Positions 49,944 to 56,513 of a stretch of 64,000 nucleotides of DNA are shown piece after piece (the first letter of the stretch is position 1; every line of letters starts with the position of its first letter). This stretch comes from Cenarchaeum sp. GTDB taxonomy: Archaea > Thermoproteota > Nitrososphaeria > Nitrososphaerales > Nitrosopumilaceae. The translations under genes and the position numbers were made by a program. A model generated the notes under the pieces. The model ran no database searches, was not told where the DNA came from, and worked only from the letters and a program-made list of their open reading frames with translations. The stretch is from assembly GCA_963692915.1 (NCBI GenBank), contig OY843584.1:96001-160000 (forward strand), in the 5' to 3' direction.

Positions 49944-50055
49944 GTATGAGGTTAGCACCCCCGCCCGTTCATGCCTAGACAGGCGCCGAAGTGGCAGGCA
50001 GATCGACAGGATCACGCCTATTTGGCCAAATGAGCATGAGGTGTTGACCTCATAC
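49944..50055. mobile_element. 112-bp MITE-like element with 16-bp terminal inverted repeats and 8-bp target-site duplication
   Basis: Ends GTATGAGGTTAGCACC / GGTGTTGACCTCATAC (14 of 16 complementary); GTGTAAAT at 49936-49943 and 50056-50063. Confidence 0.85.
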
Positions 50056-50068
50056 GTGTAAATGTTTT

Positions 50069-52777
50069 TTATCGATCGGCATGTTTTTTGATTATGACGT
50101 GAACGTCATCTGGATCATATGCCACGTCCCACTCCCATTTACCAAACCTACCATCTGAATTTACTGTTTCAACCCATTCTTTCAACGCATCGTGTTTTTT
50201 TGTAGTTTGTTCATTATGTTGTCCTTTAATCTCTAAAATTAACGTGACATTATTTTCTAGCTGGACCAGATAATCAGGATTATAATTATGAATCTCTCCC
50301 TTAAATTGATATTTCACATTGAATCCTGATATGTAGTTTTTTACCCATGAAACAACTCTTTCATTTTTTTCTAATTCCTTGCTAGCTTGTTCTTCCCATT
50401 TATTGTCACACGGGCTAGGATTAATATGTGATTTTGTTGCATTGACAACTTTTTTTGTAGTGTACCATGCTTGCATATCATTAGTTGATTTTTGCTGTTT
50501 TGTGTCACCAAAAATTATTTTTTTAGATTTTGTGTTATCAGCTCGTATGAACTCATGTATGTACATGACAATAGTTTTCATGTTAAACATGATCGCTAAA
50601 TGTTTTCTTATTTTTAATTCATCTGTTAAATTTAAAAATTTAATTTTATCTAACTCGATAAATTTCTCAACAATTTTAACAATTTGAAAAAAAAGATAAT
50701 TTTTATTCCCTGACCATTCTGGGATTGTTATGTGATCATAGATATCACTTACAGTCTGAAAAATTATTGTTTGCATTCGTAATTTGTTGTAGGATTTTTG
50801 CAATGTTATCTCTGAAGCACGGCTGATGTCTAATTTTGAATCTAGCATTGGGGCTACGTGTATGGTTGTGGTGACTTTTGATCTAATCCTTAATGTTGAA
50901 ACTTTTTTCCAGTTGATTTTTAAAACTGGTGTGATTATAGTTTCTATTCTAGCTATGTTCGGCCAGCTTATCTCGTATTGAATATTTATTGGATCACATG
51001 CTATGCGTGTTTTCACCTTTTCTTTTCGAACCTTGCTTGGAGTGTTCTCATGTGGCAGAAATGAAAACGGTACTCCGAGTATATTGACATATTCTTTATC
51101 TAACAGACCAGTTTCAGGATCTATTTCATATGATAGGCGGCGTAAACCCCTGCCTACCACTTGTTCACATAAAAGTTGACTAGTAAATGCACGTAACCCC
51201 ATTATATGAGTGACATTTTTTGCATCCCATCCTTCAGACAGCATTTGTACTGCAATAATATTCATTATTTGTTCTCCGGGTTTGTCTTTTTGACCCACCG
51301 TGTTGATTATTTCACGAATAGCATCAGTTTTAGCAGATTGTTTTTCCCCACGTTCAGATTTTAAAACACTTGTATCGATACGACACATTCTATTTTCATC
51401 TGCCAATTCTTCAAATTTATATATGCTATTCTTAAAAAAATGTACTACTCTTGCTGATGTATGTACACTATTGCATACAGTAATCATTACAGGGTTTATA
51501 TTTGATTTTTTCAGCTCTTTTCTTTTCATCGCCCAATCATTTCCGAGTAATATGTATGCGTTACGGACTAAATCGGGTAATATTGTTTCGGGTTTTTTTG
51601 CGCCTTTTAGATCGCTTTTTACTTTGTCATTGTCGTATATATGATAATATTTGGAACGATCACCGTACTTGAGCGATTTGCCATCATCACCTGCAGGCAT
51701 ACGTGGAGTTTTTACAAGACCAGATTCTATAGCATCGTTAAGTGAAAAATCAGAAATTATCCATTTGAATAAAATATCATCGTTTGGCTTCTTTTGGCTT
51801 GGAATAAACGGCGTAGCTGTAAAATCAAAGCATGTGACAATAGTTCGTGCTCTATCTAATTTATCAAGTCCCTCGATCCATAACGTGGCCATCAGCTCAT
51901 CCATGTTTGATTCAAAGTCTGAATGTTTTTCATGACCATCTTTAAGTTTTCTCCACGCATGGTGTGCTTCATCATTTATCACTATTATGTTGTTATACTT
52001 ATGCTCCAAAATCCTTTTCGCGAATGCTTCATCGCTTTCAACTCCCCTGCGAACCACACTGTGAGGTTGATCTTCTACTGGTTTCAGCGTGTGCCAATTA
52101 TGAATTTTTAATTTTCCATGTCTTAGATTTTCATACATTGAATCTGGTATTATCGAATAAAGATGGTAATAACTATTTTCTTGATCAGGCGGCCATAGCA
52201 CTTGCAGTCGTGATTTTACAGTAAGTCCTGGAGCAACAACCACAATGTGTTTTGAAAATCTTTTATCTTGTGGATATGACACTTTGTTTAATATTTGCCA
52301 TGCGATTACCATTGCCATTACCACCGTTTTTCCTGTCCCTGTTGCCATTTTTGAACACAATCTTTTGAACAGTCCACCATCACTGCCTAGTCCGAGTTCT
52401 TTTTTTTCTGATTCGGGAGCCTCTATCATCCAAATTATTGTTTCTATAGCTTCCAATTGACAAAAGAAAAAACGATGTGCTTGACGCATAGTTGGATCGT
52501 TCCAAAATTCTAGAAGTTGCCTTGTTATTCCTGTGACCCCTGGATAACCTTTGTCTCTCCATCGATCTACTCGCTCTCTTATGATGTTTACAGATTGTAT
52601 GGGATAAAATGCTCCCGGATCATCAATAGCATTGTTTTCTGGAGACGCAATTATGTATCCTGCTGGCCTCCTTTTTCCAACAATGCGTTCAGGCTTGCGT
52701 GTCTCGAGATTAAATTTCCAGTACTCTTTGGGTTTTTCATACGGGTTGCATATTATCAATTGATCGATTTCGTCCAA
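50069..52777 (-). CDS. res: Type III restriction enzyme Res subunit
   Basis: FFCQLEAIET, KMATGTGKT, DEAHH, MLSEGWDAKNV, EQVVGRGLR, C-terminal nuclease PDY...ILEIKG; AT-rich. Confidence 0.92.
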   Translation of the reverse strand: MDEIDQLIICNPYEKPKEYWKFNLETRKPERIVGKRRPAGYIIASPENNAIDDPGAFYPIQSVNIIRERVDRWRDKGYPGVTGITRQLLEFWNDPTMRQAHRFFFCQLEAIETIIWMIEAPESEKKELGLGSDGGLFKRLCSKMATGTGKTVVMAMVIAWQILNKVSYPQDKRFSKHIVVVAPGLTVKSRLQVLWPPDQENSYYHLYSIIPDSMYENLRHGKLKIHNWHTLKPVEDQPHSVVRRGVESDEAFAKRILEHKYNNIIVINDEAHHAWRKLKDGHEKHSDFESNMDELMATLWIEGLDKLDRARTIVTCFDFTATPFIPSQKKPNDDILFKWIISDFSLNDAIESGLVKTPRMPAGDDGKSLKYGDRSKYYHIYDNDKVKSDLKGAKKPETILPDLVRNAYILLGNDWAMKRKELKKSNINPVMITVCNSVHTSARVVHFFKNSIYKFEELADENRMCRIDTSVLKSERGEKQSAKTDAIREIINTVGQKDKPGEQIMNIIAVQMLSEGWDAKNVTHIMGLRAFTSQLLCEQVVGRGLRRLSYEIDPETGLLDKEYVNILGVPFSFLPHENTPSKVRKEKVKTRIACDPINIQYEISWPNIARIETIITPVLKINWKKVSTLRIRSKVTTTIHVAPMLDSKLDISRASEITLQKSYNKLRMQTIIFQTVSDIYDHITIPEWSGNKNYLFFQIVKIVEKFIELDKIKFLNLTDELKIRKHLAIMFNMKTIVMYIHEFIRADNTKSKKIIFGDTKQQKSTNDMQAWYTTKKVVNATKSHINPSPCDNKWEEQASKELEKNERVVSWVKNYISGFNVKYQFKGEIHNYNPDYLVQLENNVTLILEIKGQHNEQTTKKHDALKEWVETVNSDGRFGKWEWDVAYDPDDVHVIIKKHADR

Positions 52778-52780
52778 ATC

Positions 52781-55353
52781 TCATGGCTCCATAATTCGTA
52801 ATGTTTCTATTCCTCTATCATCGATTATTTTGACTGCAATTTTTTTATTTGCTCCCAATTTAAATGGTATAGATACTATTCCTGAATATTTCTCTAATAA
52901 ATATTCCTCAACATATGGTTTTAATGTTTTTGCTATTCTATTCCATGAGCTTTGTATATCCAACATTGGAAAAAATACTTGTTGTGGGTATATGCTTCGC
53001 CCATCATAATCTGTATCTAACATCCACATAGCAATACGTGTTGGATCGCCAGGTTCGACCTTATTTGTTATTGTATTGTAATAATCAAATCCATTAATCT
53101 TTACTTCCCAATCATTTTTTTTCTTTTTAAGTTCCACATCAGGCTGCCCTATTAGCATGAATGATTCATTTTTTCTTTGTTTACTTTTTAAATCACTTGT
53201 AAACAAATCGCCGTTTATCTGAGCTTTTAATATTACAATGCCGGGCCATCTGAGTTCATCTATGTCTTTTGCTGCTTCGGGATCAAACTGCAACGCTGCA
53301 AAAATCACCATTGCGGGTTTTTCACCTAATTTACGAACCTCTTGTATCGCATTTTCAACCTGACGTTGTTCAAGAGGTGTATGTGCAGATCCAAACGATA
53401 TTAAAACAGTTTTTGTTTCATTTCCGTTTGTTTTAGCTTTTGCATGTAACCACCTGGTTGTTGGATGTGGATCTACACTTAAAAATTTTATTTTTTGCCT
53501 ATTTTTCCCAACAATTCCAGTTTTTAACAACTCTTGGCGCCAATCAGATTGCCTTTTACTTTCGTTGTTTTCTAGATCTGATTCTTTATATTGATTAACA
53601 TACATTAGATCTAATGACTTGGCCGTTGGTGATGGTACTGCTTCTACTGTGAACGGGCCTGACACTCTTGCCTTTGACGAATCTTTGTCTGGGCAATCAT
53701 ACAAAATCACATTGTTGGGTTCTTCATCTTGTGATATTGATTTTTGAGTTATTTGTTGTATTTTTTTATATGAAAATCCAGCATCAATACCCTGGTCAGG
53801 ATTTTCTAATTTATAATATTTATAAGTCGCAGTCATTAATCTTCTTTTTGTTAATGCAATTGCTACGCGTGATGTGTCACATGTAATCCAACGTCTCCCA
53901 AATTCTTCTGCTACGAATGCGGTTGTCCCAGATCCGCAAGTAGGATCTAATATGAGATCACCTGGATCGCTAGTCATCAATATGAATCGACGAATTACTT
54001 TAGCTGTGGTTTGAACAACATATATCTTGTTTTCAAATCCCCCACTACTTGTGTCATCCCACATATTCTGAAGCTCGGCATATTCAAAATCATTGAAATA
54101 ACGCACATATGATAACCTGTTGCCATTTTTCATAATTCGATTTTTTGCAATCAGATTTTTCATGCCTTTAAGTGATGTTTTCCAATGACTATGTTGACCG
54201 GGTGTGAACACTTCACCGTCAAATATGAGAGAGTCGTCAGTCTTTGACTTGCCCTGAGATGTTGTGGCTGCAAGCCTATAAATTTTTGATCTTGGCGGTA
54301 TACTAAGTGGATTATCTCTTTGCTCTTTTGTCATTCTTATACGTTCGTCCTTATTTAATTCTAAATATTTGTAATTTGGATCATTGATGGGCAACTCTTT
54401 TTTTGTATACAGTTTATGAGATTTTAACAGTTTTTTATTTTTTGCATACCATACAATATAATCAAACACCACTGAAATATGTGTACTTGTAGAATTTGAT
54501 GTTTTTCTAAATGAGATTATGCTTACAAAATTCTCATATCCAAACACTTCATCCATTATTATGCGTACATAATGCAAATTATCATCAGAAATTTGTACTC
54601 CACAACTTCCGGTTTCATTTAGTAGCTCTTTTGCTAAAATTAACCGATCGCGCAAGTATCCCAAGTATGAATGAATTTCATGCTTCCATGTGTCTCTATA
54701 CGCTGTTACCATTTCTGGTTCTTGTGTGAGATCATCATCATTACGATCTTTAACACTAATTTTATTTACAAACGGTTGAAAGTTTGACTTATATTCAATA
54801 CCGTATGGTGGATCTATGTATATTGTTTGAATTTTTCCTGCAAAATTTTCTTTTTGTAGTAGAGAATTCATAACTAACAGGGAATCCCCGGCAATTAATC
54901 GATTTGACCAATTATGTGAATGTTGATAAAATTGCAATGCTTCTCGTAACGGAAGATTGTATTCATCATGATCAAAATGAAGGGTGATTTTTTGTTGGAT
55001 GTGAGTCTCTGGCTTCAGAATTTTATCAATAATTGTTATAGGATCAATACGTTCATGTTGATGTAGCGACACTGTATCGATTTCAAAATTTCCACCTTTT
55101 TGTTTCTCAAACCAGACTAATACCGGGTCTAAATGAGGGTCATATTCGTATTTGGTTGGATCATGATCACGATCTGTGTTGGGATCAACAAGCCCTACGG
55201 GTGGGTTATTTGGTCGTGCGCTACTGTGATAATACTGCTGAATGCGTTCTCGTGGCTTGGGTTTTGACTTTGATGCTTTTGTGACTTTATTTTTTGACTT
55301 TTTGCTGGGGGGGGGGGTCGTCGTGTTCCTATTTTCGTTTTAGTCAATGGCAT
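52781..55353 (-). CDS. mod: Type III R-M adenine methyltransferase Mod, frameshifted at a G11 tract near the 5' end
   Basis: IDPPYG and DPTCGSGTT motifs. The Mod frame stays open upstream of GTG 55072 (RPNNPPVGLV, YDPHLDP) and through the tract; ATG 55353 is one base out of frame. Confidence 0.85.
55307..55317. repeat. G11 homopolymer (C11 on the coding strand) inside the 5' end of mod
   Basis: Directly visible; stands out in an AT-rich island. Confidence 0.95.
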
Positions 55354-55661
55354 ACCCCCACTATAACCACACGGCTTGCGTTGTTATATGTAAAACACAT
55401 AGTGTTGACATACTTATAGAGTTGAGTGTTCCCATAGCATTCTTTCTGGGTCATTGCTAACGCCCACTCGCAAGTTATTTTCTATATATAGGTACCAGCG
55501 CATATTGGTCATATTCCCTATGTTTTCTACAGGGTGGATGTGATTCTTCAGACGACTATTATTTCTGGCGTATTCTATGGTTTTACGTTTTGTCTGATCT
55601 GCCAGGGTAATAGTTCTGTACGCCTAGGCATTAATATGGCTCCCACTCGACGCCCGCCTGA

Positions 55662-56513
55662 ATGGCAAAGGCGACAGTCGGCATATCCATAGTGGGGCGT
55701 GACCACGAGGGAGTCGTGGCCGCGTTCACGTCATACGCGTTCCAGGGAGGGGCCAACATTGAAAAGATCACGCAGAACGTCATAAAGGGCCTCTTTGGCA
55801 TGTACCTCGAGGTCTCATTCTCCCGTCCCCCGGACCGCAAGTCATTTGACGCCGGGCTGCAGAAACTCGCCAAATCGCACGGCATGGAGGTCAGCGCGCA
55901 CCACGAGGACGGCACGACAAAGCAGATCGCAGTCTTTGTGACTCGCGAGCCGCACTGCCTCGAGGCCATACTCGCCGCACAAAAGTCACTGCGCGGCAAG
56001 GTCGCCGTCGTCGTGGGAACCACGAGGTCACTTGCGCCAATGTGCAAAAAGGCGCGCGTCCCGTTCATGGCCATCGAGGAGCGCAACCAGGAAAAGGCCG
56101 AGGCAAAACTGCTGAAAATCTGCAGAGAAAAGAACATCGACGTCATCGTCCTGGCCCGATACATGCGAATACTCACGCCAAACTTTGTCTGGCGCTATCC
56201 AAACCGCATAATCAACGTTCACCCTTCACTCCTGCCGGCGTTTCCCGGCGCATCGGCATACGCGCAGGCGCACGAGCGCGGCACAAAGATCGCCGGAGTC
56301 ACGACACACTATGTTACCGAGAGCCTTGACCAGGGCCCGATAATCACACAGCGCTCGTTTGAGATTCGCGCAGACGATGCGCTTGAAAAGATAAAGGTCG
56401 CAGGACAGAGACTAGAGGCGCGCGCGCTCCTAGAGTCACTAAAGATGCACCTTGCTGGCAGGCTCGAGGTTCGATGGCGAAAGGTTCACGCAAGGACGAC
56501 ACGGCGCAAGTAG
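55662..56513 (+). CDS. purU: Formyltetrahydrofolate deformylase
   Basis: N-terminal ACT domain; LARYMRIL, INVHPSLLPAFPGA, LDQGPII. Confidence 0.93.
   Translation: MAKATVGISIVGRDHEGVVAAFTSYAFQGGANIEKITQNVIKGLFGMYLEVSFSRPPDRKSFDAGLQKLAKSHGMEVSAHHEDGTTKQIAVFVTREPHCLEAILAAQKSLRGKVAVVVGTTRSLAPMCKKARVPFMAIEERNQEKAEAKLLKICREKNIDVIVLARYMRILTPNFVWRYPNRIINVHPSLLPAFPGASAYAQAHERGTKIAGVTTHYVTESLDQGPIITQRSFEIRADDALEKIKVAGQRLEARALLESLKMHLAGRLEVRWRKVHARTTRRK

Follow-up and report, generated by a model that had tools for sequence, protein, structure and literature searches.

The 64,000-nucleotide window analyzed here, taken from a Cenarchaeum sp. contig (OY843584.1, positions 96,001–160,000), carries on its minus strand a type III restriction-modification locus composed of the methyltransferase gene mod and the adjoining restriction gene res. 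Twelve codons past its start, mod contains a run of eleven cytosines on the coding strand (C11, read as G11 on the plus strand). Coordinates at this locus refer to the window and those of other tracts to the whole genome, G000 (Table 1); the genome of the sister species is denoted G001.

The frame that opens at ATG 55353 reads MPLTKTKIGTRR, enters C11 and runs on to a TAG at 55197–55195. Eleven codons (PLTKTKIGTRR) separate the ATG from the tract, and this leader differs in G001, where the ATG is kept, by a single synonymous change (CCA to CCG). The resulting 52-residue peptide matched no Pfam family at E-values up to 1. The Mod frame itself is open through the tract and encodes a basic linker (...PPPSKKSKNK...), ARPNNPPVGLV and YDPHLDP, the core being QQYYH..NNPPVGLV..YDPHLDP. 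Because a TAA at 55342–55340 closes this frame, it has no start upstream of the tract. By our reading of both translations, C12 or C9 would fuse ATG 55353 to the Mod frame, giving a product that begins MPLTKTKIGTRRPPPPSKKSKNK...; C11 leads to a stop after 52 codons and C10 to one after about 22. A change in repeat number thus moves mod in or out of frame, the behavior that characterizes a contingency locus. At the composition of res and mod, only ~7e-5 G/C runs of at least 11 nt are expected in 5.4 kb (our own arithmetic), and the length of the tract is far beyond chance. The TATA-like element TTTTACATATAA ahead of the ATG is a possible archaeal promoter.

An earlier sequence-only reading of this DNA had traced the ATG through C11 to the TAG, described a Mod frame open through the tract, closed upstream by the TAA and without a start before GTG 55072, and predicted that lengths of 12 or 9 fuse the ATG to the full gene. 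Re-reading and translation reproduced every coordinate of the first of these statements, translation and the open-reading-frame list bore out the second, and reading of both frames the third. Its remark that the rest of mod and the neighboring res look intact also holds, given uninterrupted frames of 852 and 902 codons and a Res score above the family cut-off.

Table 1. Features of the type III locus (window coordinates, first nine rows) and other long G/C tracts (G000 coordinates, remaining rows)
Feature	Position	Strand	Basis or context
ATG, only plausible Mod start	55351–55353	−	read from sequence
Homopolymer tract, C11 coding strand / G11 plus strand; candidate slippage switch	55307–55317	−	
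OFF-register frame, 52 codons, ATG to TAG	55195–55353	−	translation
TAA closing the Mod frame 5′ of the tract	55340–55342	−	rules out an upstream start in the Mod frame
Type III Mod frame, 852 codons plus stop (52783–52781)	52781–55339	−	translation
GTG, first ATG/GTG/TTG in the Mod frame	55070–55072	−	open-reading-frame list
TATA-like element, candidate archaeal promoter	55384–55395	−	31–42 nt upstream of the ATG; by eye only
Res subunit, 902 aa, no internal stop	50069–52777	−	TTG start 3 nt after the mod stop
Low-GC island holding exactly res and mod	50000–55500	.	0.29–0.41 GC versus 0.55–0.70 in flanks
C26 tract, second type III mod (L015)	280081–280106		856-codon frame, 45% identical; ATGATG + 4 codons + tract; needs +1
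Tract in first codons of an N6_N4 methylase	203807		
G12 tract, N6_N4 methylase broken mid-gene	319221		needs −1 or +2
Tract in N-terminal part of DndB	1309677		
C15 tract, 1142-aa SNF2+PLD DrmD-like protein (helicase-nuclease)	1523591		frame open through tract
Tract adjoining a HARE-HTH protein	1521639		
Tracts at three paralogous secreted proteins, ~815 aa	419733, 647452, 656965		50–80 nt upstream of the genes
Remaining tracts	21144, 1122850, 1124573, 1126657, 1631617		upstream of or within genes of unknown family

A Pfam search assigned Mod to PF01555 (N6_N4_Mtase; E = 1.5e-32, residues 170–497), and its translation holds both motif IV (IDPPYG) and the SAM motif (DPTCGSGTT), as expected of a methyltransferase domain. 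Among solved type III Mods, it matched those of Helicobacter pylori (6k0w_B, 7.2e-18), EcoP15I (4zcf_A, 1.3e-14) and Mbo45V (7dsu, 5.3e-13). Res carries a ResIII domain (Pfam, E = 8.4e-10) and scored 935 bits against NCBIfam NF046055 (BPTD_3080 restriction endonuclease; cut-off 800); it gave no sequence match to any solved structure. The adjoining, co-oriented res, with its helicase domain and restriction-endonuclease match, has the makeup of a type III partner. The two genes form an island of low GC content, flanked by a UbiA prenyltransferase gene on one side and a formyltransferase gene on the other, which was probably acquired horizontally and occupies the same site in G001.

Comparison with homologues clarified where Mod begins. 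GTG 55072 encodes the valine of a conserved VSLH motif, which is present in 114 of 119 database Mod homologues and preceded there by a median of 71.5 residues (minimum 25); none of the 119 starts at VSLH. A PPVGL-type N-terminal core is kept in 110/119, and tract-free homologues start 10–60 residues ahead of their QYxH..NNPPVGLV core. From the position of VSLH and the N-terminal core in homologues it follows that ATG 55353 is the only credible start, and GTG 55072 is unlikely to be a real one. The consensus mod allele is therefore not in frame with that start; the public gene call at this locus covers a 696-aa remnant of ~865 aa. Between G000 and G001, mod shows a proportion of synonymous differences (pS) of 0.143 and of nonsynonymous differences (pN) of 0.019 (dN/dS 0.12), indicating strong purifying selection, with which a dead gene does not fit. 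In addition, the 852-codon frame persists in DNA of 36% GC. These comparisons support the view that mod is a real type III gene maintained by selection.

Long G/C tracts in the genome and its relatives

G000 is a single contig of 1,644,826 bp (59.4% GC, 99.86% complete) that encodes an archaeal AmoA (E = 2.4e-117) and hence represents an ammonia-oxidising archaeon, as had been assumed from the window alone. Its G/C runs of 5, 6, 7, 8 and 9 nt number 1425, 283, 44, 3 and 0, respectively, after which the genome holds 15 runs of 10–26 nt. Besides the C11 and C26 tracts of the two type III mod genes, there are 13 tracts of 10–21 nt (Table 1), and about half of all tracts lie within low-GC defence islands. 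Both genome-wide and across the lineage, the tracts cluster on restriction-modification and defence genes and on those for surface proteins. Searches of G000 for MutS_V and NucS_C gave no match, whereas control searches with the same families gave matches in 11 and 6 of 14 reference genomes, respectively; this negative result for MutS and NucS fits with unstable repeats.

Some of these repeats share further features. The tracts at 1122850–1122868 and 1126657–1126672 (L019) have the common setting CAAAATT-Gn-CGCGATCATGSCCTGATC, with the inverted repeat GCGATCA / TGATCGC directly 3′ of each. Both precede genes of unknown family, and their orthologues in G001 differ in length. Two repeats of other kinds were noted as well (L170/L171 pair). 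A (CTCCGAG)17 array at 895444–895562 precedes a type ISP restriction-modification enzyme (domains Mrr_cat_2, ResIII, ISP coupler and N6_Mtase) by ~120 nt, and an (AG)12 array at 844111–844134 stands at the end of a PAPS-reductase-domain gene and is followed by a ResIII/DEAD helicase.

The sister genome G001 also has 15 long tracts, in contexts that include an N6_N4 methylase, a position upstream of a C5 methylase, a GmrSD-type nuclease and a position upstream of an Ig-like-domain protein. Seven tracts could be paired as orthologues between the two genomes by their flanks. Five of them differ in length (17/21, 19/16, 17/18, 19/18 and 16/13 in G000/G001); the mod tract, at 11/11, and a further one, at 15/15, are equal. 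Among 41 related genomes searched, a run of ten G was present in 14, including all five of this genus, and absent in 27. The tract-bearing relatives cluster in few genera; they include G005, G010, G017, G019 and G021 as well as every genome of genus g1.

Mod homologues (E of 1e-60 or better) occur in 31 of 401 genomes of the family. We counted the 25 loci at which the match reaches the N-terminal part, leaving out the partial or broken loci L083, L085, L087, L088, L090 and L006. A 5′ G/C run of at least 8 nt was present at nine of the 25, in six genera, some being poly-C and others poly-G on the coding strand. At the loci that we read, the layout consists of a start codon, 4–12 codons, the tract and a basic linker. 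By reading, two loci are ON (L068 with G13, L089 with C9) and five are OFF, of which L001, L002, L015 and L086 need +1 and L072 needs −1. The tract of L081 lies just upstream of a TTG start, and that of L069 runs off the contig end. A database relative with 70% identity (P0003) reads ...MTPAPPPPKKRK... in frame, through PPPP. The presence of tracts of both polarities at one position points to repeated selection for a repeat there.

As a control set, and for this use only, we took a protein-based metagenome scan that yielded 79 loci, none above 57% identity. Of those with at least 150 nt of upstream sequence (46–57% identity), 0/56 had a G/C run of at least 8 nt or an A/T run of at least 10 nt, in a window slightly narrower than that applied to the family; because kin are not independent, no p-value is attached to the contrast. 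Many Mods of other lineages (P0007, P0008, P0036, P0071, P0074 and others) begin with five or six lysines, and locus L074 has an A9 run. These lysine runs and the A9 of L074 may be poly-A counterparts of the G/C tract.

Probable replication slippage and the alternatives

The explanation that we favor, and hold to be reasonably probable, is that replication slippage in the tract switches mod and thereby the whole type III system. The C11/G11 run would act as a hypermutable simple-sequence repeat (SSR), that is, a contingency locus, placed 12 codons into mod. Slippage during replication would alter its length; lengths of 9, 12 or 15 would join ATG 55353 to the 852-codon Mod frame (ON), and other lengths would end translation after 22 or 52 codons (OFF). 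Type III Res recognizes DNA and acts only through Mod. The OFF state would for this reason silence both methylation and restriction, and a return to ON would restore both. The assembled allele is OFF, and on this reading the sampled populations are mostly so. We infer that slippage proceeds at a useful rate, is reversible within populations and controls methylation. Taken together, the anatomy of the locus and its relatives make a phase-variable type III system probable.

Tract lengths at the locus itself were available from the two genomes and from sequencing runs, the latter as assembled contigs and not as reads, so that heterogeneity within populations is not measurable from them. G000, G001 and run X5 have G11, and run X1 has G17. 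The X1 contig, which may come from the source sample of the genome, shows no mismatch over 1394 nt and yet carries six extra G at the mod tract. The X5 contig represents a different strain, with 13 differences nearby. The contigs of X4 and X6 end at or near the tract; this is no evidence of heterogeneity, and they were not used. An exact-flank pattern scan of metagenome contigs for length variants returned no stretches, and the same pattern across genome contigs recovered only the sister genome (L026), plus chance bacterial matches (L024, L025).

Several of these observations weigh against a slippage switch. No ON allele was present among the four observed lengths at the mod locus (11, 11, 11 and 17), all of which equal 2 modulo 3 and share one OFF frame, and no full-length (ON) variant at 90% identity or above was found in the protein database. 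It is also odd, for a hypermutable site, that two species separated by a pS of 0.14 carry the same tract. Furthermore, the contrast between 9/25 family loci and 0/56 control loci overstates its own significance. The sequence-only reading had proposed a reversible defence or epigenetic switch assembled in the OFF state. The OFF allele, the maintained gene and the lineage-wide tracts agree with that proposal, but the locus has yielded no ON allele. The orthologue comparison which it had recommended was likewise divided in outcome: it revealed tracts, ON and OFF registers among homologues and differing lengths at five of seven pairs, whereas the mod tract itself is 11/11 and OFF in both genomes.

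The shared length may be related to the unusual conservation of its surroundings. Window positions 54900–55950, which comprise the first 450 nt of mod and ~600 nt upstream, are 97–99% identical to the sister species, compared with ~95% over the rest of the island. The first 150 mod codons show almost no synonymous changes between the species, and run X5 has the same pattern. Either constraint or recent exchange could underlie this excess conservation of the 5′ kilobase, and a recent exchange would account for the shared tract length as well.

Among the alternatives, programmed recoding survives best, although we regard it as unlikely. A fixed G11 would then work as it stands, with a −1 slip of the ribosome or the addition of a base by RNA polymerase yielding a constant low level of full-length Mod. 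It stays a live rival because all four lengths fall in the same OFF frame. The constancy of length between the two species also favors it, as does the fact that the second mod (C26) and L086 (G14) likewise need +1. The run CCC CCC CCC CCA allows tRNAs that shift to the −1 frame to pair with CCC again, as a slippery run should, and by our reading a −1 slip on CCC CCC CCA would yield exactly the C12 product. Both −1 frameshifting and poly-A slippage have been reported in archaeal genes (PMC3711429), which counts for recoding. However, no RNA structure that might assist a slip was apparent downstream: the 127 nt there have a folding energy of −12.4 kcal/mol (z = −0.14), and their first 38 nt are left unpaired. 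A shift in the other direction would be required by L072 and by the methylase at G000:319221, and in some relatives the tract is already in frame (L068, L089 and P0003). In addition, tract length at other loci varies freely between the sister genomes, and the four length observations are not independent.

Slightly less probable again is a gene locked in the OFF state, in which the tract would be a mutational hot spot without adaptive switching, present for some other reason, and a recent slip in it would have knocked out mod, leaving it OFF or decaying. The low dN/dS (0.12 over a pS of 0.14) argues against this, having been recorded between two species that carry the same OFF tract, as do the intact 852-codon Mod and 902-codon Res frames in AT-rich DNA. 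The recurrence of tracts at the same 5′ position in six genera, with none at the 56 loci outside the family, is also hard to reconcile with mere decay. What such a gene would explain is that every allele seen is OFF, that in G000 both type III mods are OFF together with one more methylase, and that the public annotation contains only the 696-aa remnant.

A miscounted homopolymer, with a true tract of G12 and a gene that is simply ON, is very improbable. Errors in long-read assemblies fall most often in long homopolymers, and X1 does disagree with the assembly at the mod tract. The disagreement, however, amounts to six bases and not one, and G11 was obtained independently in G001 and in the X5 contig from a different strain. 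A uniform undercount by one base can be ruled out, since the methylase at G000:319221 and L072 need the opposite correction. The least probable alternative is a shorter Mod translated from GTG 55072, to which the tract would be irrelevant: no start codon precedes this GTG in the open frame, but initiation there would place the start at the VSLH motif, ahead of which 114 of 119 homologues have at least 25 residues, and would delete the PPVGL core.

Beyond the single locus, we advance a wider and more tentative proposal, namely that the symbiont-type ammonia-oxidising archaea (Cenarchaeum and several related genera) may have a multi-locus contingency system that toggles genes stochastically. Such a system would consist of ~15 hypermutable G/C tracts plus other repeats in a 1.6-Mb genome. 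The toggled set would comprise the two type III systems, further methylases, Dnd, a DISARM-like helicase, the type ISP enzyme and the large secreted proteins. Acting together, ~15 tracts per genome would give a population mixed states of defence, methylation and surface.

Comparison with known systems

The mechanism by which a repeat controls a type III mod is already textbook knowledge in bacteria. In the phase-variable mods of Haemophilus, Neisseria, Moraxella and H. pylori (modH), as here, the length of a 5′ repeat sets the mod frame. The bacterial phasevarion mods resemble the present locus also in having an adjoining res and in that a genome may hold several separately switchable methylases. 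The difference lies in the host, which is an archaeon (Nitrososphaerota, Cenarchaeum-type) and not a bacterial pathogen or commensal. Poly-C and poly-G tracts in type III methyltransferase genes are a known bacterial case (PMC3711429). A survey of REBASE reported repeats in 17.4% (662/3805) of type III mod genes, counting mononucleotide runs of at least 9 within the ORF or promoter (PMC5909438), a length that the C11 tract exceeds.

Many tracts in a small genome, placed both within and between genes and associated with surface and restriction genes, are likewise found in the poly-G/C loci of Campylobacter jejuni. To our knowledge, Campylobacter lacks MutS, as found for G000. The archaeal tracts are longer than those of C. 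jejuni (10–26 nt), lie in a genome of 59% GC and fall, for about half of them, in low-GC defence islands. The C. jejuni G/C tracts have been described on surface-structure and restriction genes (PMC8355987).

EcoP15I and EcoP1I share with the present system an alignable Mod, the order mod then res, and a ResIII helicase domain in Res. Unlike that of EcoP15I, Mod here has a basic N-terminal extension of ~50 aa, and Res belongs to the BPTD_3080 family. We know of no phase variation in EcoP15I. Genes expressed by frameshifting or slippage, such as the poly-A magnesium chelatase cluster, in which Methanocaldococcus is represented, resemble mod in having a homopolymer at the frame junction of an intact, conserved gene and in the same off-frame being kept in relatives. 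They differ from it in that the run here is G/C and not A/T, lacks downstream structure and has homologues in all registers.

The sequence-only reading knew of no description of such a switch in ammonia-oxidising archaea. Our search extends this to any archaeon: the literature searched, bioRxiv supplements and most REBASE tables aside, contained no primary account of an archaeal restriction-modification gene that varies in phase through an SSR. The text and one supplement of the type III mod repeat survey contain no archaeal names (PMC5909438). In the available part of a review of archaeal restriction-modification, phase variation appears in a reference title only (PMC11033074), and the corresponding part of a 2026 review gives phase-variable methylases for bacteria only (PMC13076061). 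A 2010 homopolymer study covering 18 archaeal genomes was concerned with tracts no longer than 10 bases, most of them poly-A/T (PMC2831843). Whether multi-locus phase variation is truly confined to pathogens, or only seems so through database bias, is a question raised in a 2025 review, which points to archaeal phylogenies for future work on it (PMC11868660). A 2025 preprint remarks in passing that archaeal contingency loci have been described, citing its references 13–15, of which reference 13 is a bacterial review (PMC12633550).

Phase variation by slippage and the regulons of switching methylases have been worked out almost wholly in bacterial pathogens and commensals. The set of tracts on defence and surface genes suggests that archaea use the on/off switching known from those pathogens. 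If so, these would be the first archaeal phasevarions, and multi-locus phase variation would extend outside bacterial pathogens to a lineage where searches for MutS and NucS gave no match. The main weight of the finding comes from the genome-wide and lineage-wide pattern. The mod locus and its 14 companion tracts offer a concrete case from an archaeon, a host-associated nitrifier not yet in culture, making testable whether archaeal slippage reaches useful rates, whether switching of restriction serves as bet-hedging against viruses and whether archaeal DNA methylation is regulatory. There are consequences for annotation too, as gene callers shorten such genes and methylome studies of such organisms would meet variable motifs.

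Two minor observations concern the DNA upstream of mod. At window positions 55664–56200, runs X1, X4 and X5 show a second haplotype at ~30–50% of the depth over the formyltransferase gene, with 5–9 differences per 125–140 nt and a 3-nt insertion, which points to two closely related strains within these samples. Across the mod 5′ end, both haplotypes appear to have one common sequence. The gap between mod and the formyltransferase gene contains an open frame of 69 codons (55417–55623, minus strand). A suspected resemblance to GIY-YIG nucleases found no support, as the frame matched no Pfam family at E-values up to 1; it is 98–99% conserved in the sister genome.

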